64,000 nt of DNA, taken from Dehalococcoidia bacterium (GTDB lineage: Bacteria; Chloroflexota; Dehalococcoidia; SHYB01). The position numbers and the translations under genes are program-made. Shown one piece after another: positions 3,118 to 63,129 of the stretch (positions within the stretch are counted from its first letter, which is position 1; every line of letters starts with the position of its first letter). The notes beneath the pieces are model-generated. The model saw only the letters and a list, made by a program, of their open reading frames with translations. It was not told the DNA's origin and searched no databases. Location: positions 788,863-852,862 of the forward strand of contig OZ242299.1 in assembly GCA_965207995.1 (NCBI GenBank). The letters are read 5' to 3'.

Positions 3118-3160
3118 CGCTACGCTCTCCTTCGGCCCGCTTGGCCGCTGCAGATTGAGG

Positions 3161-9869: not shown

Positions 9870-9921
9870 GGGACGGCTCTGCGCCTGGAGAAGCGCCCTC
9901 CAAGGGCGTGGGGCTCTCCGG

Positions 9922-9950
9922 TTGCGTGTGGGATGCCGGGTGAGTATGAT
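9922..9950 (+). promoter_or_regulatory. candidate sigma-70-type promoter for vapBC (TTGCGT-17-TATGAT) inside a local AT-rich island
   Basis: Hexamers read directly; AT-rich segment 9935-9985 in an otherwise ~70% GC region; GGAGAAA Shine-Dalgarno 7 nt before the vapB ATG. Confidence 0.35.
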
Positions 9951-9982
9951 TTAACTACTCTGCAATTCATATTGGAGAAAGC

Positions 9983-10213
9983 ATGAGAATATCGGAGCGG
10001 GGTCAAATCACCATCCCCAAGCATCTGCGGGAGCGGTTCGGGATGCACCGCAACGTCGAGGTCGAGATTAGCCCGACCGACGACGGCCTGCTGATCCAGA
10101 AACGCACGGCGGCGAAGCACCCGGTGGACCGCGTGTACGGGATCCTGGGCAAGGGAGCACTCGGTGAAGGCGTAAGTGTCGACGCCTACATCGAGGAAAT
10201 CCGCGGGAGATGA
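9983..10213 (+). CDS. vapB: type II antitoxin, AbrB/MazE/SpoVT-fold (VapB-like)
   Basis: 76 aa; N-terminal swapped-hairpin motif RGQITIPKHLRERFGM; stop overlaps the toxin start (ATGA). Confidence 0.8.
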   Translation: MRISERGQITIPKHLRERFGMHRNVEVEISPTDDGLLIQKRTAAKHPVDRVYGILGKGALGEGVSVDAYIEEIRGR

Positions 10214-17608: not shown

Positions 17609-17624
17609 AGGTCTAGCTAGACCT
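17609..17624. terminator. perfect 16-bp palindrome AGGTCTAGCTAGACCT between convergent gene ends (possible bidirectional terminator hairpin)
   Basis: Read directly; overlaps the stop codon of the giant minus-strand gene and lies 18 nt after the stop of the plus-strand hydrolase gene; no U-tract. Confidence 0.25.
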
Positions 17625-23523: not shown

Positions 23524-25750
23524 GGCGTTGCCTTCGACAAACCGAGTAGCCGGTCCGTTCGAAGCTCACCGTCACGGATACCGGTGCTGTCGGTGCTGCC
23601 TCGGGGACTCGGGCGATTATCGTGGCATCATCGTCGACTATGGTGACGATGGTCTCGTCGTTCGTGCCGCCGAGGACCGCCGTCGGGAGGGTCCCGAAGT
23701 CCAGCTTCACCGACTCTTCATCGTCGTCCGCCTCATCCTGGACGGCCGTGAAGGTGAAGGACTGCTCGGTCTCCCCGCTCTCGAAGGTTACGTTCGACGG
23801 TACGCCTGAGTAGTCCGCGGACGTCATCCCGTTCTGCTCGACCGTCTCGATGGGAATGACCACCTGGCGCTCGGGGTCTTTGTCGAGGTTCACCTTGATG
23901 GTGACCATGCTCCCCTCGGTGACCCTGTAGCTGTCCCGTTCGAAACTCGCCTTCACCCGTACGTCGTCGCTGTCAAGGACGTGCACGTTGACGGCGGCCA
24001 CGGCCTTGCCGCTGTAGTCGCTTCCCGCCGCCGTAACCGCGTGGGTGATCGTGGCGGTGTCGTCGGTCCCGTCGAAGTCCTGGGCGGTCGAAACCATCAC
24101 CGTTTGCGCCGTTTCCCAGTTGGACGCGGTGAAGATGAGCGCGCGTTTGTCGACGGTTACGTCCGGGTTGTCCGGCGCCGTGACCGAGACGGTCACGTTC
24201 GCTGCCGGTTGCGAGGCCAGCACCACCGTATAGGGCTTGCTCAGGCCCTCGGCGACAGTCAGCGTGGTCGGGGAGACCGTTATTCCGGCGCCGTCGTCAT
24301 CAATGATGGTGACGGTGGCCTCGTTCGCCGGGCCCTCACTGACGCCGTTGGGCAGCGACGCGCCAAAGGCCAGCTTGACCGACTCGCCGTCGTTCTCTCC
24401 GTCGTCGTCGATGCTGTCCTGGACCGCGGTGAAGGTGAAGGACTGCTCCGTTTCCCCGCTCTCGAAGGTCACGCTCTCGGGCACGCCGGAGTAGTCGGCG
24501 CTGCTCGCGCCGTCCTGTTCGCTCGCCGTGATGGGAACCACGACGTGCCGCTCTGGGTCCGCGCTCAGGGTGATCGTCACGTCGACCTCGTCGCCTTCCG
24601 CAAGCGTGTAGGTGGCGGACTTGAAGCTCACCATCACGGACGGCACGTCATCGTCGTTGATGGAAACGGCCGTTTCGCTCGTGGCGCCGACGGTGACCGC
24701 GTTGGGCAGGCTCCCGAAACCGATCGTCACCGACTCATCGTCGTCGTCCACCATGTCCTGGACCGCGGTAAAGGTGAAGGTCTTCTCCCTCTCTCCGCTC
24801 TCGAAGGTCACGGTCTCGGGCACGCCCGTATAGTCGGCGGCGGTGACCCCGCCCCGCTCGCTCTTGGTGAGGGGAATGACCACCTGCCGCTCTGGGTCCG
24901 CGCTCAGCGTGACCTTCACGGTCGTTGCGCTTCCCTCGGCGACGACATGGGCGGCTTGATCGAAGGAGACGGTGACCGGCGCGTCCTCATCGTCGATGAC
25001 GGTCACGCCCACGCTGGCCATGCGGATGCCGTCGTAGTCGCCGTCGTCGGAGTTGACCGCATGGGCGATCGTGGCGCTCTCGTCCAGGTGGTCGTCGTCT
25101 TGGGCGGCGGACACCGTCACGGTCTGTTCGTCATCCCAGTTGGACGCGGTGAAGGTCAGGCTGCTCGTGTTCACCGACACGCCGGAGCCGCCGGAAGTCG
25201 CGAGGGTGACCGTGACGTCGGCCGTCGGCTGGGAGGCCAGCACCACCGTGTAGGTCGTACTGCCTCCCTCATCAACGGTCAGCGCGGTCTCGGACACGAC
25301 AACGCCGACGCCGTCATCGTCGTTGATGAACACGTCGGTCTCGTCGGTATCCCCTTCATTCACACCCGTGGGCAGGCTGCCGAAGGCCAACGAGACCGAC
25401 TCACCGTCGTCGTCCACGGTGTCTTGCGCGGCAGTCAGGGTGAAGGTCTTCTCCGTTTCCCAGCTCGCGAAGGTCACGGAGGCGGGTACGCCAGAGTAGT
25501 CCGAATCGCTCACGCCGCCCTCTTCGGTCGTGGTGATCGGGACCACCACCTCTCGTCCCGGGACGACGTCGAGCGTCACCGTGACGGTGACGCTTTGTCC
25601 CTCGGCGACGGCGTAGGAGCTTTGCTCGAAGCTGACCGCGACCCATGGGCCATCCTCGGACAAAGCAAAAGGCAAGGCCGCCGCGATCCCAATCACACCC
25701 AGCGCAGCAAAGCCCAGCACACGACTCTTGAGAGTGAGCAGGCTAAACAT
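23333..25750 (-). CDS. giant secreted Calx-beta repeat protein, N-terminal portion with signal peptide (authentic frame only from 25750 down to about 23541)
   Basis: Starts MFSLLTLKSRVLGFAALGVIGIAAALPFALSEDGPW (signal peptide), then 4 Calx-beta and 2 SQPTA-type modules. After …VSFERTGYSV the reading becomes nonsense (CRRQRRGGEG…); shifting by one nucleotide restores …VEGNAVVVRVTLSADPERQ, i.e. the start of ORF 17617..23523. Confidence 0.75.
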   Translation of the reverse strand: MFSLLTLKSRVLGFAALGVIGIAAALPFALSEDGPWVAVSFEQSSYAVAEGQSVTVTVTLDVVPGREVVVPITTTEEGGVSDSDYSGVPASVTFASWETEKTFTLTAAQDTVDDDGESVSLAFGSLPTGVNEGDTDETDVFINDDDGVGVVVSETALTVDEGGSTTYTVVLASQPTADVTVTLATSGGSGVSVNTSSLTFTASNWDDEQTVTVSAAQDDDHLDESATIAHAVNSDDGDYDGIRMASVGVTVIDDEDAPVTVSFDQAAHVVAEGSATTVKVTLSADPERQVVIPLTKSERGGVTAADYTGVPETVTFESGEREKTFTFTAVQDMVDDDDESVTIGFGSLPNAVTVGATSETAVSINDDDVPSVMVSFKSATYTLAEGDEVDVTITLSADPERHVVVPITASEQDGASSADYSGVPESVTFESGETEQSFTFTAVQDSIDDDGENDGESVKLAFGASLPNGVSEGPANEATVTIIDDDGAGITVSPTTLTVAEGLSKPYTVVLASQPAANVTVSVTAPDNPDVTVDKRALIFTASNWETAQTVMVSTAQDFDGTDDTATITHAVTAAGSDYSGKAVAAVNVHVLDSDDVRVKASFERDSYRVTEGSMVTIKVNLDKDPERQVVIPIETVEQNGMTSADYSGVPSNVTFESGETEQSFTFTAVQDEADDDEESVKLDFGTLPTAVLGGTNDETIVTIVDDDATIIARVPEAAPTAPVSVTVSFERTGYSVCRRQRRGGEGDAQRGPGAAGGGPHYRDRTGWLDVRRLFGRAVQRHLRERGDVELLHLHRGAGRLGRRR

Positions 25751-25759
25751 CCACGTTTT

Positions 25760-25788
25760 ATTGTAACCAAATATTGAACCTAGTTCAA
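25760..25788 (-). promoter_or_regulatory. candidate sigma-70-type promoter TTGAAC-17-TACAAT for the giant gene; -10 ends 9 nt before the ATG (near-leaderless mRNA)
   Basis: Minus-strand reading of 25751-25790 is …TTGAACTAGGTTCAATATTTGGTTACAATAAAACGTGG-ATG; about 100-bp AT-rich island (25751-25850) in GC-rich DNA; no Shine-Dalgarno. Confidence 0.4.
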
Positions 25789-25989
25789 AACCAGCACAAA
25801 TTCGTCACATCTCTTTCCTAACGGCACACCTTTTTCTCACAAGAGGACACCGGGGGCCGATTCCCCCAAGAAAGGCCTCCCACGCGTGCGGCGCGCACGC
25901 TCAGTTAACGCGCAACAGGCATAACGGCCAGGATGAGACAGCCCGAAGAGGAAGGGCGAGAGGAAGAAAGGGCTTACCGTCGGGCCGTT

Positions 25990-28900
25990 CTACACCGTCA
26001 GACGGCGGTAAAGCTGCGGTAGCCGCTCCGGCAGCGTGTGGATGTCGGCGACGACCTCGTAGCCCATGTCGCCGCCCATCATCGTCTTCAGGTAGTCGTG
26101 GCCGGCCCGGTCGACGGTGAGGCAGAACGGTGTGATACCCAAGCGCCGCGCTTCGAGCAGCGCCATGCGCGTGTCGTGGACCGCGTACTCTTTCTCCACG
26201 CCCTCGCGGCTGTAGCCCCGGTCCTGCGGCCGGCCATCACTGAGCAGGAAGAGCACCTTGGTGCGAGCCTCGTGGTCGTCGAGCTTGCTGACCGCGTGCC
26301 GGATCGCCGGCCCCATGCGCGTGGCGTGCATCGGCGTGATCTTGTCGAGGCGGCGCTTCACGTTCTCACCGAAGGTTTCCGCGATGTCCTTGACCACGTA
26401 GAACTCGACGTTTTCGCGACCGTAGCCGGAGAAGCCGTAGATGCCGTACTGATCGCCGATGGCCTCCAGCGCCTTGATGAGCAGCACCGTGCTCTCTTTC
26501 TCGATGTCGATGATCCGCTTGTAGGTGCGGCGGCTCATCTCCTCGCGGCGGGTGCGGAGCCACGTCATGTAATCGCGCGGGTCGTCGGGGAAGTCCCACG
26601 AGTCGAACTGCCGGCGCGTCTCATCGACGGCCTCGGCGGTCGAGGCGCTCATGTCGAGCAGGAAGCTCACCGCGACATCGCGCTCGATTTTGTTGCGTCG
26701 CCAGTAGATCTTGTCCGTCGGCGTGTCGCCCGCGCGGGCTTGGATCATGGCCTCGACGACCAGGTCGAAGTCGTACTCCTCCCCGTCGGGAAGGTGCTTG
26801 ACCCTCCGCAGCTGCTCCGGCGCCAGCGACTCGAACTGCTTCTTGATGCGCGAGACGAGTCCATAGTGCGCCCGCAGCGTTCGCTCGAAGAAGTCGACAG
26901 TGCCCTCATCCATGCGCTTCTCGCGCACCGCGCACCAGCGGGGCTTGTAGTCCCCGGCCCGGAAGTCCCACTCGTCGTAGAGGAACGTCTCGGCTTCGCT
27001 CGCCAGCGGGGCGTCGTCGTCCTCGCTGTGCTGGAACTGCGTCCCCTGCTTCGACTTGGCCTGCTGTTGCCGCGCCGCCTCGTTGATCAGGTTGTCGACG
27101 AACTGGCTCGACGACTGCGGCAGGTCGCCCTCTTGCGCCTCCGCGACCTCGATCTCGGCCGACTTTTCGAGCAGTTGTCGCAAGTCTTCCTCGGAGAGCC
27201 CCGTGATCTCCATCGGGTTCTGCGCCTTCGAGCGCTCGTTCTTGAGGTTGTCGAACGCCTGCACGAGCTCGGGCTTGAACTCGCCGCGGAAGTCCACCAT
27301 CTGGGGACTCTTGTATTCCTGCTCGTCGCCGTCGGGCTGGCCCTCGCCCGAGGCGCCCTCCATGAGGTCTTGCAGCATTTGGTCGAGGTCGCCCTCGTCG
27401 CCGTCCTGGCCCATCTCGTCCATGCTGCGTTCTTCGCCGCTTTCGGGGTCGGCCTCGACGTTGGGCACCGTGCTCAGCAGGTCGTAGATGCGGATCGTCG
27501 CCTCCGCCGTGTCTTCGACCGTCCGTTCCTCGTGTTGCATCGTCCGCACCAGCACCGCCAGAGCGTCGAGATACTCCGAGATCTCGGCCGGCGTCTTGAC
27601 CGTCCCCGTCTCCTCCAGGCTCAGCCGGACCAGCACCTCCATCGCCGCCTCCCGCAGCGGCAAGCTGTCCGGTTCCGGGCGCGAGCGCAGCGACTCGCGC
27701 TGCACCCGGCTGTAGCTCTCGCCGATGCCGGCGTACTCGTACTTCACCCGGTGGTCGATACGCCCGTCTTCGACGAGCATGAAGATGTCCGAGGCCAACT
27801 TCCGGTCGCTGAACAGATCGAAGAACCGCTCCAGGTCGATCCGCGCGCCGCCGTCGCCGTCGCGCTTGCCCAGGACGGCCCGCTGCTCCTCGGCGGCGAA
27901 GACCGTGGACGGCTTGTCGAACTGGAAGCCGAAGCTCCCGAACTCCAGGTGTGCTACCTGGTGGGTCGCGATGACCTTGAACCACGCGAAGTTCTCGTCC
28001 TTCGTGGTGTACCGCTCCACAAACGTAGGGAGGAAGATGTTGTCGCCCTCCGTCGTGGCATAGTCAGAAGACGTCCAACCGATCCCCTTGCCCTGCAGCT
28101 CGTCGGTGGGCCGCAGCTCGACCCGTTGGCCCGCGAGCGCGCGGCAATACATGGTGAGGACTTCGTTCACCCGCGCCAGATCGAGCCCCGATGAGAGGTC
28201 TTCGATGGCCCGCTCCGCGCGGCCCGATTCGAGGCGGAAGAAGGCGAGGCCGCCGTCCTCGTTCTCGTCGAGGACGCGCAGCCCCGCATTGAACCAGCCC
28301 TCCAGCCGCTCGCCGCGCAGCCGGTTCATCACCACCGGCGCGTTCTTGACGAACTCTCCCACCGCGGCAGCCGAGTGGTCGGCGAGCCGGTCGGCCATGT
28401 CGAGGAGCGGACCGTGCCAGTCCGGGTGCACCTCGCCAAGAGCGGCGGAGGCTTCCACGAGGAACGTGATCGTGTTGCCCGCCCCCTGCTGCGAGAGCTG
28501 CTGCGCCAAATCGAGGAAGCGTCCGCGCTGGCGGGGCTCCACGCGCTCGATGATCTTCGGGCCGTTCTCGAAATACGGCTTGACGTCGCGCCAGTTCCCG
28601 CGCACCAGCACCGAGCCCAGGTTCAGGAAGCTGACACGGTCGCCGGGGTCGATCTTGGGAAAGACGCCGCTCGCCAGCGCGAGGCACTCGTTCGCCAGGT
28701 CGTACGACTTCTGGGCCAGGCTGTCGATAAAGTCGACGAGGTCTTCAAGTTCCTGGAGGGTGAGCGCGCCCAGCAGCCGCGGGCTCGCCTCGAAGTAGGT
28801 CGAGGCCAGGGAGCTCGACTTCCACGTTCCCTTGTAGAGCCGCTTGCCGACGCCGGCCCAGCGCCCCAACTCCGAGCCTCGCACGTAGGGAATCACCTCG

Positions 28901-29223
28901 GGCGTGGCGCGGAAGAAGGACGATGAGATGACCGGCGAGTCGGACGACAGCGCTCGGCCCCACCGGGCCCACTCCATCACCTCGGGGAATTCGAGCGCCT
29001 GCACCACGCGCGGTGTCGACTTGAAGTACTCGGTCGCCGCTTCCCAGGATCGGAAGGTGTGCTGCGCCAGCGAGACGCCCTCCGCCGCCCACGCTTGGTA
29101 GTCGTCGGCGCCGAGGTGCTTGCGGGCCGCTTCCTCGGCGCCGCGGAACTCGGTGACCACGGACACGGGGAATCGCTGCAGTTGCGATTCGAACGTGGCG
29201 GGGTCGTAAGCCTTATCCGTCAC
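25990..29223 (-). CDS. von Willebrand factor A domain protein, CbbO/NorD-like partner of CbbQ-type MoxR ATPase (1,077 aa)
   Basis: C-terminal VWA domain with MIDAS DxSxS (FLLDMSASTAE); N-terminal ~350 aa has degenerate helical repeats as in CbbO/NorD; long acidic low-complexity insert (…PESGEERSMDEMGQDGDEGDLDQMLQDLMEGASGEGQPDGDEQEY…); 76 nt downstream of the ATPase gene. Confidence 0.8.
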   Translation of the reverse strand: MTDKAYDPATFESQLQRFPVSVVTEFRGAEEAARKHLGADDYQAWAAEGVSLAQHTFRSWEAATEYFKSTPRVVQALEFPEVMEWARWGRALSSDSPVISSSFFRATPEVIPYVRGSELGRWAGVGKRLYKGTWKSSSLASTYFEASPRLLGALTLQELEDLVDFIDSLAQKSYDLANECLALASGVFPKIDPGDRVSFLNLGSVLVRGNWRDVKPYFENGPKIIERVEPRQRGRFLDLAQQLSQQGAGNTITFLVEASAALGEVHPDWHGPLLDMADRLADHSAAAVGEFVKNAPVVMNRLRGERLEGWFNAGLRVLDENEDGGLAFFRLESGRAERAIEDLSSGLDLARVNEVLTMYCRALAGQRVELRPTDELQGKGIGWTSSDYATTEGDNIFLPTFVERYTTKDENFAWFKVIATHQVAHLEFGSFGFQFDKPSTVFAAEEQRAVLGKRDGDGGARIDLERFFDLFSDRKLASDIFMLVEDGRIDHRVKYEYAGIGESYSRVQRESLRSRPEPDSLPLREAAMEVLVRLSLEETGTVKTPAEISEYLDALAVLVRTMQHEERTVEDTAEATIRIYDLLSTVPNVEADPESGEERSMDEMGQDGDEGDLDQMLQDLMEGASGEGQPDGDEQEYKSPQMVDFRGEFKPELVQAFDNLKNERSKAQNPMEITGLSEEDLRQLLEKSAEIEVAEAQEGDLPQSSSQFVDNLINEAARQQQAKSKQGTQFQHSEDDDAPLASEAETFLYDEWDFRAGDYKPRWCAVREKRMDEGTVDFFERTLRAHYGLVSRIKKQFESLAPEQLRRVKHLPDGEEYDFDLVVEAMIQARAGDTPTDKIYWRRNKIERDVAVSFLLDMSASTAEAVDETRRQFDSWDFPDDPRDYMTWLRTRREEMSRRTYKRIIDIEKESTVLLIKALEAIGDQYGIYGFSGYGRENVEFYVVKDIAETFGENVKRRLDKITPMHATRMGPAIRHAVSKLDDHEARTKVLFLLSDGRPQDRGYSREGVEKEYAVHDTRMALLEARRLGITPFCLTVDRAGHDYLKTMMGGDMGYEVVADIHTLPERLPQLYRRLTV

Positions 29224-29299
29224 GGAAGCACTTCCATCGCCGGACTCTCGTCCTCACTGGAGCGGCGGCCGGGGAGCGAAACGTCGCCCGCCGCCGGGC

Positions 29300-43358: not shown

Positions 43359-44399
43359 CTACGCCCCCGGCGCCAGCGCCTCGATAGCGTCCTCCACGGA
43401 TGCGCCGGCCTCGCCCGTGCGGATGGGTGCGATGATGGGCAGGTCGAGCCCGATGGCGCGGAGATCGTCGATGCCGGCGCGGCACTCGTCGGCGGTCCCC
43501 ACAATAACCATGGCGCGGATCAGCCGGTCGGTGACGGCGCGGGCGGCCCCCTGCTCGTCGCCGCGGTCGAGGGCGGCGGTGATGGCGTGCGTCTCCTCCT
43601 CGAAGCCCAGCTTCGCGAAATAGCTAGCGTAGAACGGCAGCCGCATGCGGCCCGCGAGGATCTGCCGGAGCACGCGCGTGGCCCGCTCGTAGTCGTCGGT
43701 GACCGCGACCCGCACGTAGCACGCCACGTCGCACGCCCCCGGCTCGCGGCCCGCTGCCGCCTCGCCCTCGCGCACCAGACCCACGGCGTCCTCGACGTAC
43801 CCCTTGGGAGAGAAGTTGAGCAGGACGCCGTCGGCGATCTCGCCGGCCAGCCGCACCATCTTCGGCTTGAGCGCGGCGAGGTAGACCGGCAGCGGTTGCT
43901 GCACGGGCCGCACGTCGATCTGGGCGCCGCTGGTGCTAAAGACCTTGCCTTCGTAGGTGACGCGTTCCCCGGCAAGCAGCCGCCGCACGATCTCGATGGT
44001 CTCCCGCCCCCGTGTGATCGGACGGTTGAAGGGAACGCCGTGACCGCCCTCCGTCATCGGCTCGTGGCCCACGCCGAGGCCGAGGACGAACCGCCCGCCG
44101 GTCAACTCGTCGATGGTCGCGGCGGACATGGCCGTCATCGTCGGCGTGCGCGTGTAGGTGGAGAGGATGCCAGTAGCGAGGCGGACCCGCTCGGTGTGGA
44201 GTCCGAGGGCGGTGAGGAAGGTCACCGCGTCGCGCCCGAAGCCTTCGGGCAGCCAGACCGAGTCGTAGCCTAGCCGGTCGGCGAGCGCGACGACCTCCCG
44301 GACCTCGTCGAACCCGTACCGGCGCAGCCTGTCGGCCGTGCCCGGGTCTCGCAGGGCAAAGGCGGCGTCGGCTTCGACGCGGAGCCCGATGCGGCTCAT
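43359..44399 (-). CDS. LLM-class F420-dependent oxidoreductase
   Basis: 346 aa luciferase-like TIM barrel (…YDSVWLPEGFGRDA…GRFVLGLGVGH…). Confidence 0.8.
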   Translation of the reverse strand: MSRIGLRVEADAAFALRDPGTADRLRRYGFDEVREVVALADRLGYDSVWLPEGFGRDAVTFLTALGLHTERVRLATGILSTYTRTPTMTAMSAATIDELTGGRFVLGLGVGHEPMTEGGHGVPFNRPITRGRETIEIVRRLLAGERVTYEGKVFSTSGAQIDVRPVQQPLPVYLAALKPKMVRLAGEIADGVLLNFSPKGYVEDAVGLVREGEAAAGREPGACDVACYVRVAVTDDYERATRVLRQILAGRMRLPFYASYFAKLGFEEETHAITAALDRGDEQGAARAVTDRLIRAMVIVGTADECRAGIDDLRAIGLDLPIIAPIRTGEAGASVEDAIEALAPGA

Positions 44400-45337
44400 G
44401 ACGCGTTCACCACGTCGATCACCTGCTCCTTGAAGCGGGCGGCGTTGTCGGCGTACTCAGCGCACGACTCCGCGGGCATCATGCAAGTGAAAACGCTGAA
44501 GCCCATCTCCCGGAGGGCCATGATCCGCTCGATGACGGGGCCGTGGTCGAAGTCGGGCGGGTAGGTGGAGTCGAGCCCGCCGATGCCGCCGGTGCACAGC
44601 GTCAGCGGCGCGGTGCGCCCCACGCGCTCGGCGTGCTCGCGGGCAAGGTCGAGCCGCTCGCGGAAATCGTCGAGCGTGGCCAGCGGCGGCGTCAGCGTGC
44701 GGGGGAGTGTGCCCGAGACCGGAATCCAGCCGTCGCACCGCTCGATGGCGCGGCGCATCGCCTTCCGGCTGTTGCCGCCGACCCAGATCGGCGGGTGGGG
44801 CTTCTGCACCGGCGTCGGCTTCATCACGCAATTGCGGGCGGTGAAGTGGCGGCCGTCGAAGTCGAAGATCTCGCCCGTCCACGCCGCCTTCATCGCGTCG
44901 ATGGCCTCGTCGGAGAGCTCGTTGAGCTCCGCCCGGTCAACCCCCAGCGCGTCGAACTCCGGCTTCAGGAAGCCGGCGCCGACGCCGATGATCAGCCGAC
45001 CGTTGGAGATGGCGTCGACGGTCACCGCCGACTTCGCGGTGATGAACGGGTTCTGGTACGGCAGGATGAGGACGTGCGTCTGGACCCGGAGGCGGGTGGT
45101 CGCCGCGGCGGCCACGGCGAGCGCGGCCCACGGGTCGAGGGGGTGGATGCCCAAGTTCGCCGTCCAGTTCGCCTCCGGTATCCAGTGATGCGTCAGCTCG
45201 ACGGCATCGAAGCCGTTCCTCTCGGCGGCGCGCGCCATCGACGAGATTCCCTCGGCGCTGGTGAACTCAGGGCCAAGGTCCCACCGGTGGGTGAGGAGCC
45301 GCAGGTGGAACCTGGCGGGGCCGGCGGTGTCGAACAT
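44396..45337 (-). CDS. LLM-class F420-dependent oxidoreductase (second, divergent paralog)
   Basis: 313 aa; luciferase-like motifs (…GFDAVELTHHW…GRLIIGVGAGF…); 4-nt overlap (ATGA) with the downstream LLM gene. Confidence 0.8.
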   Translation of the reverse strand: MFDTAGPARFHLRLLTHRWDLGPEFTSAEGISSMARAAERNGFDAVELTHHWIPEANWTANLGIHPLDPWAALAVAAAATTRLRVQTHVLILPYQNPFITAKSAVTVDAISNGRLIIGVGAGFLKPEFDALGVDRAELNELSDEAIDAMKAAWTGEIFDFDGRHFTARNCVMKPTPVQKPHPPIWVGGNSRKAMRRAIERCDGWIPVSGTLPRTLTPPLATLDDFRERLDLAREHAERVGRTAPLTLCTGGIGGLDSTYPPDFDHGPVIERIMALREMGFSVFTCMMPAESCAEYADNAARFKEQVIDVVNAS

Positions 45338-45382
45338 GCGCTGCCCTCCTTACTTTGCGGGGTCGCGGAGCGCTTGCATTGT

Positions 45383-45480
45383 ACCTCCCTCCCTCCGGGA
45401 GGGACTGAGGGCGGGAACGTCCCCGCGGGGCGGTCTTCCCCCTCTCTCGCTGGGAGAGGGTTGGGGTGAGGGCGGGGAGC
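45383..45480. repeat. REP-like element, type C copy 2 plus extra hairpins (TACCTCCCTCCCTCCGGGAGGGACTGAGGGCGGG-AACGTCCCCGCGGGGCGG-…CCCTCTCTCGCTGGGAGAGGG…)
   Basis: Shares the GAGCGCTT-[CCTCCCTCC…GGGAGGGACTGAGGGCGGG] core with 37238-37296. Confidence 0.6.
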
Positions 45481-45530
45481 CGGGAGGGGTGCGCCAACGT
45501 CAACGCTGCCTGCGACCCCATGTTGCTAAC

Positions 45531-45593
45531 GTCTCCCCTGGGGGAATTGAGAGAGGGCGCGCGCCGTCAGGCGCGCGGGCGCCCGCAGGGCGT
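45531..45593. repeat. REP-like element, type A (reverse orientation, fourth copy)
   Basis: GTCTCCCCTGGGGGAATTGAGAGAGGGCGCGCGCCGTCAGGCGCGCGGGCGCCCGCAGGGCG, about 85% identical to 43285-43353. Confidence 0.65.
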
Positions 45594-45637
45594 CCCCCCT
45601 CGCCGACCGCGGATGCGCTAAGGTCTATCATGGAAGT

Positions 45638-47056
45638 ATGTCCATCACCGCCATAACCCCAGACCGCCAGAAGACCCTCGAGCAGATGCGCCGCATCTTC
45701 CGCCCCCGCGGCGTGGCCGTCGTCGGGGCGTCGGGAACGCCGGGCAAGATCGGCTACGCCATCGTCGAGAATCTCAAGAACGGCGGCTTCGCCGGCGGCA
45801 TCTACCCGGTGAACCCCCGCGCCGACGAGATCCTCGGCTATCCCTGCTACAAGAGCCTCGACGAGGTCCCCGACGACACCGACGTCGCCCTGGTCAGCAT
45901 CCCCGCCCAGGGGGTCGCCGGGCTGGTCGAGCCCGCCGCGGCGAAGGGGATCGCCGGGCTGGTCGTCATCAGCTCCGGTTTCGCGGAGACCGGCGAGGTC
46001 GAGCTCCAGCGGGAGCTCCAAGCATTGGCCCGCGAGCACGGCGTCCGGATCATGGGGCCCAACATCTACGGCTACTACTACACCCACGCCGGGCTCTGCG
46101 CCACCTTCTGCACTCCCTACACCGAGAAGGGCGGCGTTGCCCTCGTCTCCCAGAGCGGCGGCGTGGGCATGGCCATCCTCGGTTACAGCCGGTCGCGGCG
46201 TATGGGAGTCTCGGCGATCGTCGGCTTGGGCAACAAGAGCGACATCGACGAGGACGACCTTCTCGAGTTCTTCGGCGACGATCCCAACACCGAGGTCGTC
46301 GCCATCCACATGGAGGACCTGAAGAGCGGCCGCGGCTTCTTCGAGGCGGCGAGCCGCGTCACGCGCTCCAAGCCCGTGGTCGTGCTGAAGGGCGGACGCA
46401 CCGGCGCGGGCGCCAGGGCGGCGGCCTCCCACACCGCGGCGCTGGCCGGCGAGGACCGCGTCTACGGCGCCGCGTTCGCGCAGTCGGGCGTCGTGCGCGC
46501 CCACACGCTGAAGGAGCTGCTCGACTGGTCGCGGGCGCTGCAGATGCTCCCCGACCCTAAGGGCGAGAACGTCGCCATCATCACCGGGGCGGGCGGGCTC
46601 GGCGTCCTGCTCAGCGACGCCTGCGTCGACCGCGGCCTCTCCCTCATGGAGATCCCCGACGACCTCGACGCCGCCTTTCGCCAGTACATCCCGCCCTTCG
46701 GCGCGGCGGGCAACCCCATCGACATCACCGGCGGCGAGCCTCCGGAGACCTACAAGCAGACGATTCTCCTCGGCCTCAACGACCCCCGCGTCCACGCCCT
46801 TATCATCGGCTACTGGCACACCGTCATCACCCCGCCGGTGGTCTTCGCCAAGGTGCTCGAAGAGGCGATGAACGAGGCCCGGGCCGCGGGCAACGTCAAG
46901 CCCGTGGTCGTCTCCCTCGCCGGCGACACCGAGGTCGAGGAAGCGGCCCGCTACATCGAAGACTTCGGCGTCCCCGCCTACCCCTACGCCGCCGAAGACG
47001 CCGTCGCCGCCCTCGCCGCCCGCTACACCTTCTGGCGCGCCAACCACCGCGCGTAG
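45638..47056 (+). CDS. acyl-CoA synthetase (NDP-forming) alpha-domain / CoA-binding protein (succinyl-CoA-synthetase-like)
   Basis: 472 aa; N-terminal CoA-binding Rossmann fold (…VAVVGASGTPGKIGYAIVENL…) and ligase-CoA domain with phosphohistidine-loop-like segment (…GRTGAGARAAASHTAALAG…); no ATP-grasp beta subunit adjacent. Confidence 0.8.
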   Translation: MSITAITPDRQKTLEQMRRIFRPRGVAVVGASGTPGKIGYAIVENLKNGGFAGGIYPVNPRADEILGYPCYKSLDEVPDDTDVALVSIPAQGVAGLVEPAAAKGIAGLVVISSGFAETGEVELQRELQALAREHGVRIMGPNIYGYYYTHAGLCATFCTPYTEKGGVALVSQSGGVGMAILGYSRSRRMGVSAIVGLGNKSDIDEDDLLEFFGDDPNTEVVAIHMEDLKSGRGFFEAASRVTRSKPVVVLKGGRTGAGARAAASHTAALAGEDRVYGAAFAQSGVVRAHTLKELLDWSRALQMLPDPKGENVAIITGAGGLGVLLSDACVDRGLSLMEIPDDLDAAFRQYIPPFGAAGNPIDITGGEPPETYKQTILLGLNDPRVHALIIGYWHTVITPPVVFAKVLEEAMNEARAAGNVKPVVVSLAGDTEVEEAARYIEDFGVPAYPYAAEDAVAALAARYTFWRANHRA

Positions 47057-47093
47057 CGCGGCGCCCGCCCCTATTTCCCTAGGCACGCCCCTA

Positions 47094-47123
47094 TTGACAA
47101 GCACAGTACGTATGTTCTAATAT
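47094..47123 (+). promoter_or_regulatory. candidate strong sigma-70-type promoter TTGACA-18-TAATAT in a 60-bp AT-rich island, oriented into the 70-bp repeat array
   Basis: Read directly (CTATTGACAAGCACAGTACGTATGTTCTAATATGAAC); the only AT-rich patch for several kb. Confidence 0.35.
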
Positions 47124-47204
47124 GAACGCGTGGTCCTTAGGCTGAACGACGGAGCGTGAAACCCACCCGCCGCGGGGGCAGAGGCACAAGCCCGTCGGAC
47201 CGGG

Positions 47205-47489
47205 CCGGAACGTCGACAGCGCGATTTGCGCGGAGAGTGGGAGCCGTCCACCGCGGGGGCGGCAGACCAACGCCGGACAGGCAGGAACGTCGACGGCGAT
47301 CGCGCGGGGAGTGGCGCCGCCCACCGCGGGGGTGGCGAACGAACCGTCAGGCAGGAGCGTCGACGGCGATCGCGCGGGGAGTGGCGCCGCCCACCGCGGG
47401 GGTGGCGAACGAACCGTCAGGCAGGAACGCCGACGGCGATCGCGCGGAGAGTGGCGCCGCCCACCGCGGGGTGGCAAACCAACCGTCAG
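47205..47489 (+). repeat. tandem array: one degenerate plus three near-identical 70-bp units, each containing inverted repeats (CCACCGCGGGGGTGG; GACGG…CCGTC)
   Basis: Unit GCAGGAACGTCGACGGCGATCGCGCGGGGAGTGGCGCCGCCCACCGCGGGGGTGGCGAACGAACCGTCAG at 47281, 47351 and 47421; copies 2 and 3 differ at one position. Whole unit conserved (no unique spacers), so not CRISPR. The array ends 3 nt from the stop of the minus-strand DUF35 gene. Confidence 0.85.
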
Positions 47490-47890
47490 GCGAGCCGGAA
47501 CTTGGGCAGCGCGATCTCGTCGGTGACGTCGTCGAAGACGACCTCGACGGGAGCGCCGACGGCGAGGTCGTCCCACGACGCGCCCTCGACATTGCTGAAG
47601 ATCATCGGCCCCTCGTCGAGCTGGATCTGCACGACGTTGTACGGCATCGCGTCGGCGAAGCTCTTCAGGTAGGCCTGGTGCATCTCGATGCGCCCCCAGA
47701 TCACGCCCCGGCCGCTCGCCTCCGTCCACTCGATGCGCGCCGACACGCAGCGGGGACAGGAGAGATACGGCGGGAACCAGGCGTGGCCGCAGTCCAGGCA
47801 GCGGGGCAGCAGAAGTCGGCGCTCCTTCGCTGCCTCCCAGAAGGCCCGGTCCTCGCGCGTGACCTTAGGTAGAGGTCTGTCGTAGGCCAT
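47486..47890 (-). CDS. DUF35 family protein (Zn-ribbon + OB-fold; BbsA/thiolase-associated type)
   Basis: Start at MAYDRPLPKVTRED (cat 47888-47890), 2 nt after the thiolase stop. C4 zinc ribbon CLDCGHAWFPPYLSCPRC then OB-fold. The upstream extension in the track ORF is Arg/Gly-rich junk overlapping the thiolase gene. Confidence 0.75.
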   Translation of the reverse strand: MAYDRPLPKVTREDRAFWEAAKERRLLLPRCLDCGHAWFPPYLSCPRCVSARIEWTEASGRGVIWGRIEMHQAYLKSFADAMPYNVVQIQLDEGPMIFSNVEGASWDDLAVGAPVEVVFDDVTDEIALPKFRLA

Positions 47891-47892
47891 GG

Positions 47893-49041
47893 CTAAGCGT
47901 CCCTCGTCAGGAGCGTCGCCCCAGACACCGGCGCGAGGCAGGCGTAGAGCACGGCCCCGCAGTCGGCCACCTGGCGCTCGCCGCACTCGCCCCGGATCTG
48001 GCGGATGGCCTCGGCGTGGTGGTTCCACCCTTGCATGTACGCCTCGCTCATCATCCCGCCGCTGGTGTTCACCGGCAGCTCGCCGCCCCGGCGAATGCGC
48101 CCATCCTGCACCCAATCAAGCGCCTCGCCCCGCTTGCAGAACCCGAACCCTTCCAGCGCCCACAACACCGACACCGAGAAGTTGTCGTACACCTGCAGCG
48201 AATCGACGTCGGCCCGGTCGAGCCCCGAACGCTCGAAGATCTCGTCCGCCATGCCGGCGCAGGCCTCGGCCCACAGGTCTTCCGGCACGAAGTGCTCCCG
48301 AAGGGCCGCGCGCTCCGTGAAGGCAGCGATGCGCACCGGCGGCTTGCGCAGATCGCGGGCCCGCTCGAGCGTGGTCACGATGTAGCAGACCGCGCCATCG
48401 GTCACGAGGCAGTAGTCGAAGAGGCGGAGCGGCCGCGCCACGAACCGCGAGTCCAGATATGATTGCAGGTCGAGCGGGCTCTGCATCACCGCCTCCGAGT
48501 TCATCGAGGCGTGCTCGCGAATCGCCACCGAGACCTCGCCCAACCCGTCGGCCTTGCCGCCGAGTCCGTAGTCGGCGAGGTAGTGCTCATAGGCGAGCGC
48601 ATAGAAGGCGCCCGGAGAGGTGAGTCCGAAGACGGGGTCGTACAGGTCGCCGCCGCCCTCGTTGCCGCCGAAATGCACCCGCACCGAGCGCATATTCGTG
48701 GCGTACACCAGCGCGACGTAGTCGGCCATGCCCGCCTGCACCGCCAGCGACGCGTGGGCCAGCGCCACCGCACACATCCGCCCGCTCATCGGATAGGGCG
48801 CAAGGAACCGCACGTCTCGCAGCCCGGCCCGGTACGCCAGCTTGGGATAGTCCACCGAGCTTGCAACTAGGCCGTCGATTTGCTCCGCGCGCAGGCCGGC
48901 GTCGTCGAGGGCCGCCCGCAGCGCGTCGACGCCAAGCTGTTCCGCCGTGCGTCCCGGGTCGGGGTTGCGATAAAGGTCATGGAAGTCAGTCGTACCGACT
49001 CCCACAATCGCCGTGTTGCCGAAAACGCTATCCCGCGCCAT
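47893..49041 (-). CDS. thiolase-like protein (SCP-x / non-specific lipid-transfer-type thiolase; BbsB-like)
   Basis: Start at MARDSVFGNTAIVGVGTT (cat 49039-49041). Thiolase fold with catalytic Cys region (…YPMSGRMCAVAL…) and C-terminal …NTSGGMMSEA…; the DUF35 + SCP-x-thiolase pairing is a known two-subunit thiolase arrangement. Confidence 0.8.
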   Translation of the reverse strand: MARDSVFGNTAIVGVGTTDFHDLYRNPDPGRTAEQLGVDALRAALDDAGLRAEQIDGLVASSVDYPKLAYRAGLRDVRFLAPYPMSGRMCAVALAHASLAVQAGMADYVALVYATNMRSVRVHFGGNEGGGDLYDPVFGLTSPGAFYALAYEHYLADYGLGGKADGLGEVSVAIREHASMNSEAVMQSPLDLQSYLDSRFVARPLRLFDYCLVTDGAVCYIVTTLERARDLRKPPVRIAAFTERAALREHFVPEDLWAEACAGMADEIFERSGLDRADVDSLQVYDNFSVSVLWALEGFGFCKRGEALDWVQDGRIRRGGELPVNTSGGMMSEAYMQGWNHHAEAIRQIRGECGERQVADCGAVLYACLAPVSGATLLTRDA

Positions 49042-49212
49042 TGCCCACACCTCTCGTGCGCGCTCGCGGCGCATCTTCCCACAGGCGCCGCGGGCAGCGC
49101 CACTCAACCCTTGTGTACACCGGCCACACCCATTGACAGGGAACGGCCCTCCGAGTACCGTTGCTTCGCTCCGGGCCCTTCATGTCCGGCCCGGAAATAA
49201 GGGAGGACTTCC

Positions 49213-51147
49213 ATGAGGCGAATCAAGTCTCGCTTACTCCTGTTGGCCAGCGCTCTCATCGTGACGGCGCTTGTCGCCGCCGCCTGCGGCGGAGATGATC
49301 CAACGGCGGCCCCGCCCGCCCCGGCGCCCACGAATACGCCGGTGCCAGCGACCACGGCTCCCGAGCCAACCGCGGCCCCCGAAGCGACGGCCATGCCAGA
49401 GGCGACGGCTATGCCCGAGGCGACCGCCATGCCCGAGCCGACGGCCATGCCCGAAGCAACGGCTATGCCCGAGGCGACCGCCATGCCTGAAGCAACGGCC
49501 ATGCCCGAGGCAACCGCGGCGCCCGAGCCGACGGCGGCTCCGCAGCCGACGTCCACGCCGAGGCCGACGCCGACGCCGACGCCGATTCCGGAGCCCGTCT
49601 TCGGCGGCGTCCCCGACCTGCCCAACGCACAGTATGGCGGGACGTTGATCCGGACCAACTCCGCGGAAGGCCCGACGTGGGACCCGCTGAAGGAACGCAC
49701 GCAGAACACCCAAGACCCCATTTCCCCGCTGTTCGATCAGCTCCTGATCAGTCATCCCAACGAGCAGAGTCAACTCGTACCGCAGATCGCGGACAACTGG
49801 GAGATTTCCGCCGACAACCTGACCTACACGTTCAGCATCCGCGACGACATCACCTTCCACAACGGCAGCGCCCTCAACGCTGCAGATGTCGCTTGGACGT
49901 TCGAATTACTGCGCAGCCCTCCGGAGGGCTACAGTCCCATCAACCGGGGTCTCGTCGGCTCCATCGCCAGGATCGATACCCCCGACGACCGCACTGTCGT
50001 CCTTAACTTGAGCGAGCCCGACAACGCCTTCCTCTACGCAATGGGAGGGCATGGACGCATGCACATCCTCGACCAAGAGACCGTCGAGGGGGCAGGCGGC
50101 ATCGCATCGCTCAGGGAGTGGCCGCCGATAGGCAGCGGCCCCTTCATGGGCGAGCGGGGTGGACACGATCAAGGCGTCGGCGTCGAGGTCGTGCGCAACC
50201 CCAACTACTACGTCGAGGGACGGCCGTTCGTTGACAGCATGCAGTGGTTCTTCATCCCCGACAGAGGGGCGCAGGAAGCGGCATTCCTAGCCGGCCAGCT
50301 CAGCATCCTGACCGTGAATACCGGCGCAGGGATCGACGAGATCAATTCCCGGCTCGCCGGCAGAGCGTTCATCCAAGAGGTAGCGGACACCGTCTTCTGG
50401 GATCTGAACCTCGACTTCCACAGCGAAGACTCGCCCTTCACCGACATTAAAGTGCGCGAGGCCGTTTCATTGGCCCTCAATAGGGCCGAGGCGATTGAGT
50501 TGATACGGCAGGGACGCGGCGTCTTGGGCGGCGTCATCATCCCCGGCACCGGCTGGGAAATCCCCACGTCCGAACTACTGCAGTACGCCGGCTACACGGA
50601 GACCGTTGACGAAGGCGTGGCCAAAGCGAAGGCACTGCTCGCCGAGGCCGGTTACCCGGACGGCTTCGAGTCCACCATCTGGACCCGGAACCATCCCGCC
50701 TACCTGACGCCCACCGTCGCCATGCAGGAGCAGCTCGAACGTATCGGCATCCGCGCCAACATCGTGCAGGCCGAGCAGGCGGTCTTCTTCGCCGAGCAGC
50801 GGAACCTCGACGTCTGGGACATGCAGAGCGGCGGCCACCGCTACACCGGGACCGACCCGAACTTCATGATCCGCGAGTTCTACCTCACCGACGCGACACG
50901 GAACCTCAACTTCTTCACCGACCCCGAGGTGGACCGCCTCTTCTCAGAGCAAAACCTGGAGGCCGACCCCGGTAAGCGCCGTGAGCTCGTCAACCGGATC
51001 GAGCACATCGTTGTGGGCTTCTACGGAAACCCGGTGCTCTACTACAACAAGGCGAACTACGCCATGTACAACTACGTCAAGAACCAGGCGTACCACGCCT
51101 CCTACGGGTCCAACCAGGACTTCAGGGACGTCTGGATCGAACGGTAG
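49213..51147 (+). CDS. ABC transporter substrate-binding lipoprotein, family 5 (peptide/nickel/opine type), with long Pro/Ala/Thr/Glu-rich linker
   Basis: Signal peptide with lipobox LVAAAC; SBP_bac_5 body from about aa 140; linker aa 51-110 is ten hexapeptide units (EPTAAP/EATAMP). Confidence 0.8.
   Translation: MRRIKSRLLLLASALIVTALVAAACGGDDPTAAPPAPAPTNTPVPATTAPEPTAAPEATAMPEATAMPEATAMPEPTAMPEATAMPEATAMPEATAMPEATAAPEPTAAPQPTSTPRPTPTPTPIPEPVFGGVPDLPNAQYGGTLIRTNSAEGPTWDPLKERTQNTQDPISPLFDQLLISHPNEQSQLVPQIADNWEISADNLTYTFSIRDDITFHNGSALNAADVAWTFELLRSPPEGYSPINRGLVGSIARIDTPDDRTVVLNLSEPDNAFLYAMGGHGRMHILDQETVEGAGGIASLREWPPIGSGPFMGERGGHDQGVGVEVVRNPNYYVEGRPFVDSMQWFFIPDRGAQEAAFLAGQLSILTVNTGAGIDEINSRLAGRAFIQEVADTVFWDLNLDFHSEDSPFTDIKVREAVSLALNRAEAIELIRQGRGVLGGVIIPGTGWEIPTSELLQYAGYTETVDEGVAKAKALLAEAGYPDGFESTIWTRNHPAYLTPTVAMQEQLERIGIRANIVQAEQAVFFAEQRNLDVWDMQSGGHRYTGTDPNFMIREFYLTDATRNLNFFTDPEVDRLFSEQNLEADPGKRRELVNRIEHIVVGFYGNPVLYYNKANYAMYNYVKNQAYHASYGSNQDFRDVWIER
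49363..49542 (+). repeat. in-frame 18-bp tandem repeat (about 10 units) encoding (E/P)ATA(M/A)P linker
   Basis: GAGGCGACGGCTATGCCC-type units read directly. Confidence 0.7.
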
Positions 51148-56886: not shown

Positions 56887-57993
56887 CTAGCCGATGTGGT
56901 AGAGGCGCATCGCGTTGCCCGCGAGTATCTGGTGCTTCTCCTCAGCAGGGACGCCCTCGAACGCGCGGTCGATCGCGGTCCAGGAGTTCGGCCAGTCGGT
57001 CGATGTGTGGGCGTAGTCGCTCGACCACAGGATCTTGTCGAGGCCGATCGCGCCCCGGTTCTGTACCGCGTAGTTGTCGGTGATATAGGTGTAGAAGATG
57101 TTGTGCTCGGTGTAGTAGCTCGGAAGGTGTTTGGTCTTGACGTAGGGGATCTGCAGGTCCCGCACGTGGTGCTTGTCCATCTGTTCGATGACGTAGGGCA
57201 CCCACCCGCAATCGACCTCCGCGAAGATGAACTTGAGGCCGGGGAAGCGGTCGAACACCTCGGCGTAGACCAGCTCGTTGATCCTCCCCGGCACGCTGGT
57301 GAACCGGAAGGTCGCCTGGGGGATGGTCGTGCTGTGGTGACCGACGGGCTCGGTCGCGAGGGAGACGTGGATGGCGATGGGAATATCGGCTTCCTGCGCC
57401 GCTGCCCAGAGCGGGTCGTCCGCTGGAGAGACGTGGTACTCACCCGAGGGATAGCCGCCGATCACGGCACCACGGATCCCGGGCAGGGCGAGGGCGCGGT
57501 GGAACTCCGCGACCGCCTCCTCGACTCCACAGCAGGGCATCATCGCCAGACCGAAGAGGCGGTCCGGCGCATGGGTGCAATACTCTGAGAGCCAGTCGTT
57601 GTACGCCCGGATCAGGGAGGTCTGAAACTCCGCGTCCTCGCGGTTCCACCAGATGCCGTTCGAGAGGCGTGGGGTAGGATACAGCAGCTCCCCATCGACG
57701 CCGTCGATGTCGATCTCCTTGATCCGTTCCGCCGGATCGAAGCCGCCGCGCCGCACGTTCTCCCACTTGATCCACCGTGACCGCTTCTCGATTGGATCCG
57801 AGGCGCATTGATTGAGCCCGAAGTGAACCGGGTCGATGGCGCCCTCGATGACCCAGGCGTCGCCCTCTTCGAACCGCTGCATGCGCGGGGCGCGGTCGGC
57901 GAACTTCGCGGCCACTCGGTCCCGCCACAGTTCCGGCGGCTCGTTCACGTGGGAGTCTCCGGAGATGAGCTTGTATTCGGTCCGTTTCGTCAT
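56887..57993 (-). CDS. amidohydrolase_2 family protein, paralog 2 (about 80% identical to 55321..56427)
   Basis: Start at MTKRTEYKLISGDSHVNEPP (cat 57991-57993); same 368-aa length and motifs as paralog 1. Confidence 0.8.
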   Translation of the reverse strand: MTKRTEYKLISGDSHVNEPPELWRDRVAAKFADRAPRMQRFEEGDAWVIEGAIDPVHFGLNQCASDPIEKRSRWIKWENVRRGGFDPAERIKEIDIDGVDGELLYPTPRLSNGIWWNREDAEFQTSLIRAYNDWLSEYCTHAPDRLFGLAMMPCCGVEEAVAEFHRALALPGIRGAVIGGYPSGEYHVSPADDPLWAAAQEADIPIAIHVSLATEPVGHHSTTIPQATFRFTSVPGRINELVYAEVFDRFPGLKFIFAEVDCGWVPYVIEQMDKHHVRDLQIPYVKTKHLPSYYTEHNIFYTYITDNYAVQNRGAIGLDKILWSSDYAHTSTDWPNSWTAIDRAFEGVPAEEKHQILAGNAMRLYHIG

Positions 57994-62247: not shown

Positions 62248-63129
62248 ATGAACGGCCCCGCACGACTCACCGAGCTGCTGGAACGGGACGGCATTATCAC
62301 CGCGCCGGGAACGCACGACGCCATCACGGCCAAGCTGGCCGTCCAGGCCGGGTTCGAGGCCTGCTACGTCAGCGGCAGCGGAATCTCGACCGCCTTGACC
62401 GGCCTTCCCGACGTGGGCATGGTCACGCTCACTGAAATGGCGAAGGCGGTGCGCTACATCAACGACGCCGCACCCGGCATGCCGCTCATCGTTGACGGCG
62501 ATACCGGCCACGGCAGCGCCTTGAACGCGATGCGCTACGTCCACGAGCTCGAACGCTCGGGAGCGGCGGCGGTCCACATCGAAGACCAGGAATTCCCCAA
62601 GCGCTGCGGCCATCTCGACGGTAAGACCATCGTCCCCGCCGACGAGATGATCGGCAAGGTGCGCGCGGCCCTGGAGGCGCGGTCCGACCCCAACTTCCGC
62701 ATCATCGCCCGCTGCGACGCCAAGGCCGTCGAGGGGCTCGCGCCCGCCATCGAACGCATGAAGCGCTACGCCGACGCCGGCGCCGACATCATCTTCCCCG
62801 AGGCGCTGCAATCGGAGGAGGAGTTCCGCACCGTGGCCGAGGCCATCGATATCCCACTGCTGGCCAACATGACGGACTTCGGGAAGACGCCCTACATCAG
62901 CGCCGACCAATTCGAGGCCTGGGGATTCAAGATCGTGATCTTCCCCGTCTCCGCCCTGCGCATCGCCAACCACGCCGTCCTCGAATTCTTCAAGGCGCTG
63001 CGCGACTCAGGGACACAGAGGGAGCACCTCGAACAGATGCTGACGCGGCAACATCTCTACGAGATCATCGACTACGACAAGTACCAAAACTATCAGGACC
63101 AGTTCGCCTTAAGCGAGCCGCCCTCGTAA
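62248..63129 (+). CDS. isocitrate lyase/PEP mutase superfamily protein (methylisocitrate lyase / carboxyvinyl-carboxyphosphonate phosphorylmutase-like)
   Basis: 293 aa; ICL/PEPM motifs (…AGFEACYVSGSG…, …IVDGDTGHG…, …HIEDQEFPKRCGHLDGK…). Confidence 0.8.
   Translation: MNGPARLTELLERDGIITAPGTHDAITAKLAVQAGFEACYVSGSGISTALTGLPDVGMVTLTEMAKAVRYINDAAPGMPLIVDGDTGHGSALNAMRYVHELERSGAAAVHIEDQEFPKRCGHLDGKTIVPADEMIGKVRAALEARSDPNFRIIARCDAKAVEGLAPAIERMKRYADAGADIIFPEALQSEEEFRTVAEAIDIPLLANMTDFGKTPYISADQFEAWGFKIVIFPVSALRIANHAVLEFFKALRDSGTQREHLEQMLTRQHLYEIIDYDKYQNYQDQFALSEPPS

Follow-up and report, generated by a model that had tools for sequence, protein, structure and literature searches.

Between two convergent genes of a Dehalococcoidia bacterium there is a promoter-like site followed by head-to-tail repeats of about 70 bp that contain inverted repeats. 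Does this layout specify an RNA, either a structured one of the repeat-antitoxin kind or an antisense transcript, or is it a minisatellite that formed in the gap? We examined this question in a 64,000-nucleotide stretch of the contig (called the window here) and in the corresponding junction of four relatives. The results favor, with a probability of roughly three in four, a lineage-specific VNTR or minisatellite that arose from the end of the neighboring DUF35 gene in the gap between the two convergent genes.

The array and its setting

The gap is bounded on the left by an acs-like gene that ends with a stop codon at 47054-47056 and is predicted to encode a protein with CoA_binding_2, Succ_CoA_lig, and Ligase_CoA_2 domains (Pfam). 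Facing it on the right is a gene for a DUF35 protein with zf-ChsH2 and OB_ChsH2_C domains (Pfam), which is translationally coupled to a thiolase-like gene at 47893-49107. The acs-like gene on the + strand and the DUF35-thiolase pair on the - strand converge across 429 nt of intergenic DNA (Table 1). Longer open reading frames on both strands overlap or follow the array; neither Pfam nor PADLOC gave a match for them, and they are antisense shadows. Pfam also recognized nothing coding in the repeat array itself, which keeps no consistent reading frame, 70 not being divisible by 3.

The tandem 70-bp organization proposed in a sequence-only reading of this DNA is real, as both Tandem Repeats Finder and a repeat search recovered it. 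Tandem Repeats Finder placed the array at 47203-47491, with a period of 70, 4.0 copies, 89% matches, and a score of 403. The four units, U1 to U4, are unequally similar to one another. U2 and U3 are 99% identical and differ at one base (47358), with bounds of 47278-47347 and 47348-47417 in the repeat search. Compared with U2, U4 is 81% identical in an ungapped alignment (one G is missing) and 94% identical in a gapped one, and U1 is 86% identical when gaps are allowed. When read on the - strand, a unit consists of a TGA, then a hairpin, then a decayed gene tail, and the complement of the DUF35 TGA stop codon (47486-47488) lies inside U4. The inverted repeats that had been described for the units, CCACC...GGTGG and GACGG...CCGTC, occur in every full unit.

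Rather than a spacer, the 80 nt from the promoter-like site to the array contain an older, decayed unit, U0, which shares with the other units GCCCACCGCGGGGG and a GGAACGT head and whose hairpin is broken in the window (CCCACCC / GGGCAGA).

Table 1. Features of the acs-like / DUF35 junction, in positions of the window.
Feature	Positions	Strand	Basis or remark
acs-like ADP-forming acyl-CoA synthetase gene, alpha-type, 472 aa	45638-47056	+	Pfam; left convergent flank
Two direct copies of G(C/A)CCGCCCCTATT, 20 nt apart	47063-47095	+	Repeat search
Sigma-70-type promoter-like site, TTGACA-18-TAATAT	47094-47123	+	10/12 positions match
U0, old decayed unit	47133-47202	n/a	Alignments
U1, degenerate 77-nt unit	47203-47279	n/a	Tandem Repeats Finder, repeat search, alignment
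U2 and U3, two 70-nt units, most recent duplication	47280-47419	n/a	Tandem Repeats Finder, repeat search
U4, 69-70-nt unit adjoining the DUF35 gene	47420-47489	n/a	Repeat search, alignment
DUF35 / ChsH2-like zinc-ribbon OB-fold protein gene, 134 aa	47486-47890	-	Pfam and translation

Origin from the DUF35 gene end and variation in copy number

The sequence-only reading noted that the end of the DUF35 gene resembles the degenerate first unit and suggested that slippage seeded the array there. No other stretch of the window was found to match as well. Aligned with the first nucleotides of U1 (47201-47236), the 3' coding end of DUF35 (47491-47526) agrees at 75% of positions, with a core in which 21 of 25 are identical. 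None of 3164 background windows taken from the 64 kb reached its local score of 15; they scored 14 at most (mean 7.7, sd 1.2). The match falls exactly in register, one array period past U4. Every unit starts with 25-36 nt of decayed gene end, and this pseudo-copy is best preserved in U1. The DUF35 protein terminates in ...DEIALPKFRLA, and this C-terminus is identical in relatives, including those without any array. Because the gene end is conserved as coding sequence even where there is no array, it is the template and the units are the copies; the last ~36 nt of the coding sequence (47490-47526) are the template of the unit head. Both the register of the homology and the coding conservation in array-less relatives bear out the proposal that the array was seeded at the DUF35 end.

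To compare this junction across relatives, we retrieved alleles via homologues of the acs-like protein (94-98% identity) and via members of the DUF35 cluster (91-93%). This gave five alleles (the window, L019, L023, L022, and L024) with flanking genes that share 89-95% DNA identity. The window allele has an intact promoter-like site, a U0 with a broken hairpin, and four units. The allele of L019 has an intergenic region of 215 nt with identical promoter hexamers, a U0 hairpin broken as in the window, and one unit. That of L023 is about 200 nt long and contains TTGACA-18-TACTAT, preceded by an unalignable flank, followed by a U0 with a perfect 7-bp hairpin and by one unit. In L022, the intergenic region is 265 nt long and the promoter is degraded, with 3/6 matches in the -35 hexamer, a 21-nt spacer, and a -10 hexamer of TACCAT; U0 is intact, there are no units, and the gene-proximal part contains unrelated palindromes instead. 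The intact U0 hairpin of L022 and L023 reads CCTGCCC-ACCGCG(G)-GGGCAGG. The L024 allele is 40 nt long, with no promoter, no U0, and half a unit consisting of the hairpin half only. No homologous unit was found in sister lineages in which the DUF35 gene has a different downstream neighbor (P0001, P0002, P0004, and P0222). Thus, the five alleles carry 4, 1, 1, 0, and 0.5 units, respectively, which is the variation between assemblies that the sequence-only reading itself had named as speaking against a repeat RNA.

Could the true copy number be one, with the extra copies in the window produced by mis-assembly? Tandem repeats are error-prone in assemblies, and relatives carry a single unit. However, the copies in the window differ from one another, U2 and U3 by 1 nt, U4 by 4-5 nt and one indel, and U1 by ~14%, and therefore the pattern is unlike that of a looped graph traversal. 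In addition, a 100%-identical DUF35 protein is encoded on a 2.79-Mb contig, suggesting a long-read, near-complete assembly. We consider an assembly artefact very unlikely. The count in L019 comes from a short-contig metagenome assembly in which repeats may have collapsed, whereas L022, L023, and L024 are on long-read-style contigs free of this weakness, with a coverage of only 3.5x for L023.

The single unit of the relatives is most similar to an inner unit of the window. The units of L019 and L023 share 97% and 94% identity, respectively, with U2, and 82% with U1. Because U2 is the closest to them and U1 is only 82% identical, the window lineage has evidently undergone a recent expansion while an outer copy decayed.

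We infer that recombination or slippage produced these changes. A tandem duplication of ~70 nt, comprising the final ~30 nt of DUF35 coding sequence, the TGA, and ~40 nt downstream with the hairpin, would have placed a pseudo-copy of the gene end at a distance of one period from the genuine one. The resulting two direct repeats could then have undergone unequal homologous recombination or replication slippage. Units have been gained and lost repeatedly: an old one, U0, has decayed, a single unit is the common state in relatives, and the window genome has expanded to four. At their left edge, U2 to U4 read GGC-A-GGAACGTCGAC, which looks like gene-end sequence (GGCGAGCCGGAAC) joined to that of the U1 head (GGAACGTCGACAG), as would be expected from an unequal crossover between the two.

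The promoter-like site and a possible transcript

The promoter-like site was found as the sequence-only reading described it, within an AT-rich island. This island has a GC content of 47% in a window of 67% GC. The site is located 38 nt past the acs-like stop codon and 80 nt before the array, with a predicted start near 47130 that points at the array and the DUF35 gene. One such match was found in 7 kb, where 0.5 +/- 0.9 are expected, and on its own this is within chance. There are eight such sites in the whole window, and five of the seven others lie just upstream of Pfam-confirmed genes (encoding Amidohydro_2, ETF, RuvB, CoaE, and a Calx-beta protein), so the motif is predictive in this genome. 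Judged on this basis, the predicted promoter would be active at about even odds or better. No conserved open reading frame follows it: a GTG at 47130, 7 nt past the -10 hexamer, opens a 9-codon frame that is not conserved in L023 or L022. The direct copies of G(C/A)CCGCCCCTATT, the second of which abuts the -35 hexamer, are present in L019 and are not a conserved part of the element because they are absent from L023, L022, and L024. No other copy of the AT-rich island was found in the window or in the retrieved loci except at orthologous sites. In L020/L021, a promoter is found downstream of the acs-like gene; we considered the island as a remnant of it and rejected this, as the similarity score of 6.5 equals the shuffle mean.

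Evidence for selection on the promoter-like site is thin. Between the window and L019, the stretch covering the promoter and U0 is 96.6% identical compared with 88% at third positions of the acs-like gene (p = 3e-4), which hints at constraint on this stretch. A recently shared block could explain this identity because third positions in the adjoining final bin of coding sequence likewise reach 98% identity. The promoter core of the window agrees with that of L023 at 26/30 positions; this equals the neutral third-position level of 83-86% and is thus no evidence of selection.

The sequence-only reading also proposed a structured non-coding RNA, and this was not upheld. An Rfam scan of 46800-47800 with E <= 10 returned nothing but chance matches to miRNAs, within the coding sequences on either side. 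The 376-nt region folded no better than dinucleotide shuffles, with z = -1.4 for the + strand and -1.15 for the - strand, and the same was true of two-unit alleles (z = -0.6 to -1.8). RNAalifold, applied to the stretch from the start site to the first unit in the window, L019, and L023, found compensatory changes in 0 of 40 pairs. For single units, z was between -0.8 and +0.8 against shuffles on either strand, in predictions by a tool that leaves pseudoknots outside its scope. It is true, as proposed, that each unit could fold autonomously, but this is uninformative at such z values: in DNA of 75% GC, every 70-mer forms hairpins. The absence of the unit from the remaining sequences that were searched, described below, likewise speaks against a structured RNA.

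The one piece that is kept in every allele is a GC-rich hairpin with the loop ACCGCG(G), which occurs somewhere in all five. In the units, it has an 8-bp stem and the loop ACCGCGG, and in L024 it alone occupies the 40-nt gap between two stop codons. Across nine instances, 80.6% of cells pair; shifting the partner by 1-3 columns lowers this to 58.6% or less. Double changes occur in two pairs, both from one lineage, and the covariation is not significant: in 76 to 140 of 500 trials, shuffled sequences attained the same values. The unit hairpins include two G.U pairs, one in U1 and one in U2-U4, that are wobble pairs on the + strand only; this weakly favors a + strand RNA. A GC-rich stem-loop just downstream of one or more stop codons is therefore present. 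A terminator scan of 44000-51000 found no terminator-like site, and the unit hairpins are not followed by a canonical U-tract; a weak one, UUUCACGUU on the - strand, accompanies the U0 hairpin alone, in L022 and L023. GC-rich bacteria often use tail-less hairpins, and a terminator function is hence compatible with the missing U-tract. Our best guess is that the hairpin is a putative terminator or an element that protects 3' ends between the acs-like and DUF35/thiolase transcription units. Additional copies are tolerated but not needed.

A credible promoter facing the 3' end of an opposing operon is a trait shared with cis-antisense RNAs from the 3' ends of convergent genes. The locus could be read as a cis-antisense or small RNA gene, in which the promoter at 47094 drives a + strand RNA of U0 and the units. 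This RNA, composed of hairpins and inverted copies of the DUF35 3' end, might pair with the 3' end of the DUF35-thiolase mRNA or block its transcription, with the number of units tuning the effect. The geometry of the promoter is good and its motif is predictive in this genome; the window, L019, and L023 all have the layout of promoter, U0, and unit; between the window and L019, conservation of the left intergenic part exceeds that of synonymous sites; the G.U wobbles favor the + strand; and the heads of the units are complementary to the DUF35 mRNA at its 3' end. Set against these points are the degraded promoter of L022, the loss of both promoter and U0 in L024, the neutral level of identity of the promoter core between the window and L023, a fold no better than shuffles and lacking covariation, a terminator scan that found none, and copy numbers that range from 0.5 to 4 in close relatives. 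One allele has a degraded promoter and another has none, so any antisense RNA is dispensable, and this loss of the predicted promoter in two of five alleles is also what sets the locus apart from cis-antisense RNAs. We judge this reading unlikely, and a functional antisense or small RNA of any sort at the locus is about as improbable or slightly more so.

A narrower version has the promoter, U0, and the units forming a young, lineage-specific regulatory RNA gene that arose from inverted copies of its target's own 3' end. The + strand RNA would then carry one to four imperfect antisense DUF35 mRNA tails with a hairpin after each, and changes in unit number would adjust either the repression or the transcriptional insulation of the DUF35/thiolase operon. 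If true, this would be a visible case of the birth of a small RNA from a gene-end minisatellite; we regard it as a long shot.

Comparison with known repeat systems

The sequence-only reading likened the array to ToxI-type antitoxin RNAs and remarked that no ToxN-like toxin gene follows. Pfam and PADLOC agreed with this remark, as they found no such gene after the array. In type III loci, the toxin gene is preceded by a terminator, which in turn is preceded by tandem repeats, and the ToxI repeat is 36 nt long (PMC3401426). A promoter followed by tandem direct repeats, the trait that the locus shares with ToxI, CptI, and TenpI arrays, corresponds to the front half of this layout (PMC3401426) and is not diagnostic alone. 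The remainder of the layout is not found. The array runs into the 3' end of a convergent gene with no toxin gene on the + strand, and the open reading frames that overlap or follow it have no Pfam or PADLOC match. There is no terminator-like site, and U4 reaches the DUF35 stop codon without a spacer. The 70-nt unit is twice as long as the 36-nt ToxI repeat and is partly decayed coding sequence, no conserved fold was seen, and the array is dispensable, with relatives retaining only 0-1 units. There is no terminator-toxin module either. The lack of a toxin gene effectively refutes the comparison with type III antitoxins, and a ToxI-like array is hardly credible here.

Copies of the unit elsewhere in the genome, and the genes beside them, had been put forward as another route to a partner gene. 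Allowing up to 3 mismatches, we found no second copy of the 25-nt hairpin core in the 64-kb window. We searched genome and metagenome collections with a degenerate pattern, CCACCGCGGGGN{0,1}YGGCRRACSAACS, that covers all four units. Four matches were found in 185,579 species-representative genomes; none of them extended past the pattern, and they are chance matches. Another four were found in JGI metagenome contigs, again with none extending past the pattern, in a collection that apparently does not contain the sample of L019 and thus gives a weak negative. The unit was therefore found nowhere else in the window or in either collection, and within the sequence searched it is private to one locus. 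For genome scans the locus is a caution: a promoter and hairpin-forming tandem repeats in DNA of 70-75% GC do not amount to a repeat-RNA system, and such a claim needs a fold that beats shuffled sequence together with a partner gene.

Like the unit, REP/BIME elements and bidirectional terminators are GC-rich hairpins that lie between convergent genes, where they plausibly end transcription or shield the 3' ends of mRNAs. Hundreds of dispersed copies are typical of REP/BIME elements. By contrast, the hairpin here is local, and a U-tract is missing from the unit hairpins.

Among known systems, bacterial intergenic minisatellites such as the mycobacterial MIRU-VNTR come closest. Supply et al. reportedly found in 1997 that MIRUs occur at dozens of loci, mostly inside operons between co-directional genes. 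The array resembles MIRU-VNTRs and other bacterial intergenic minisatellites in having head-to-tail repeats of tens of bp in an intergenic position with a strain-variable copy number, and it resembles MIRU-VNTRs in having repeat boundaries tied to the stop codon of an adjacent gene. It differs in that it was found at one locus only, lies between convergent genes, and can be traced to the 3' end of a neighboring gene. MIRUs have been described as minisatellites that are mostly intergenic and vary in copy number (PMC3635867).

As one more bacterial intergenic VNTR, the array is of little import for biology at large. It is an unusually legible example of the birth of a minisatellite, in which a duplication across a stop codon would leave a pseudo gene-end that seeds unequal recombination. 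Alleles with 0.5, 1, and 4 units persist naturally, and the array is a possible strain marker for the population.

Predicted promoters and AT-rich islands

In the window, five gene starts are each preceded, at a distance of 13-100 nt, by a TTGACA-type -35/-10 pair; the genes encode an Amidohydro_2 protein, ETF, RuvB, CoaE, and a secreted Calx-beta protein. Given these positions, sigma-70 promoters of the consensus type seem to be both in use and recognizable in this genome of 67% GC. We also found further AT-rich islands that contrast with the otherwise 67%-GC window, and the predicted promoter of the Calx-beta gene is within one of these (25705-25855).

Features identified in the window and in related loci
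Feature	Locus	Position (strand)	Detail
TTGACA-type -35/-10 pairs	Window	8761, 13065, 41760 (+); 30914, 25788 (-)	
AT-rich islands	Window	9913-10028, 25705-25855, 57057-57145, 63029-63118	60-nt GC down to 0.32-0.45
369-nt period repeat	Window	19427-20474	2.8 copies, 81% matches; inside ORF 17617-23565 (-)
Second Calx-beta protein	Window	23333-25804	Adjoins the 369-nt repeat ORF
VWA protein	Window	25990-29253	Neighbor of the Calx-beta genes
Perfect small hairpin	Window	47047-47061	CCGCGC-GTA-GCGCGG, read directly from the sequence
In-frame 18-nt repeat	Window	49360-49585	~8.8 copies; 54-nt units were scored as well
Perfect palindrome	L020; also L021	7455-7480 (L020)	TATAGCAG-CTTA-CTGCTATA
Two palindromes	L022	7600-7680	GAGAAC-ATAC-GTTCTC and CCGTCAA-N10-TTGACGG
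Region downstream of DUF35	L001	1850-2200	
Region downstream of DUF35	L002	3290-3893	
Region downstream of DUF35	L025-L034	~2906-3800	

Hairpins and palindromes near the acs-like and DUF35 genes

The small hairpin in the window overlaps the stop codon of the acs-like gene (TAG, 47054-47056) and may be the acs-like 3' hairpin. In L020 and L021, related loci with an acs-like gene, a perfect palindrome sits between the acs-like stop codon and a gene encoding 81 aa that is followed by a DUF2283 gene. This palindrome resembles an operator, and the two genes would then form a small module that is possibly toxin-antitoxin-like.

In L022, the allele of the acs-like/DUF35 junction from a close relative, two unrelated palindromes replace the gene-proximal stretch of intergenic sequence. 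The 11-mer AGAACATACGT of L022 recurs on the opposite strand in the spacer of the putative promoter downstream of the acs-like gene in the window (47107-47117), a match that could reflect a small inversion or mere coincidence. In the sister lineage (L001, L002 and L025-L034), the sequence beyond DUF35 varies in length between 685 and 898 nt. Palindromic elements of the CTCTCCCCC...GGGGGAGAG type fill it, together with short repeats rich in G. These elements may represent a dispersed REP-like family that is not related to the 70-bp minisatellite unit of the window.

Repeats within coding sequences

The protein encoded by the ORF that contains the 369-nt repeat is 1982 aa long and carries 10 Calx-beta domains. 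This repeat consists of coding domain repeats and is not a non-coding array. The 18-nt repeat encodes PEATAM/PEPTAM repeats that form the Pro/Ala/Thr-rich linker of an SBP_bac_5 solute-binding protein, directly after a lipoprotein-like signal peptide (LVAAAC). BLAST of the window against L022 gave offset matches to this region, suggesting that the copy number of the 18-nt repeat differs between strains.
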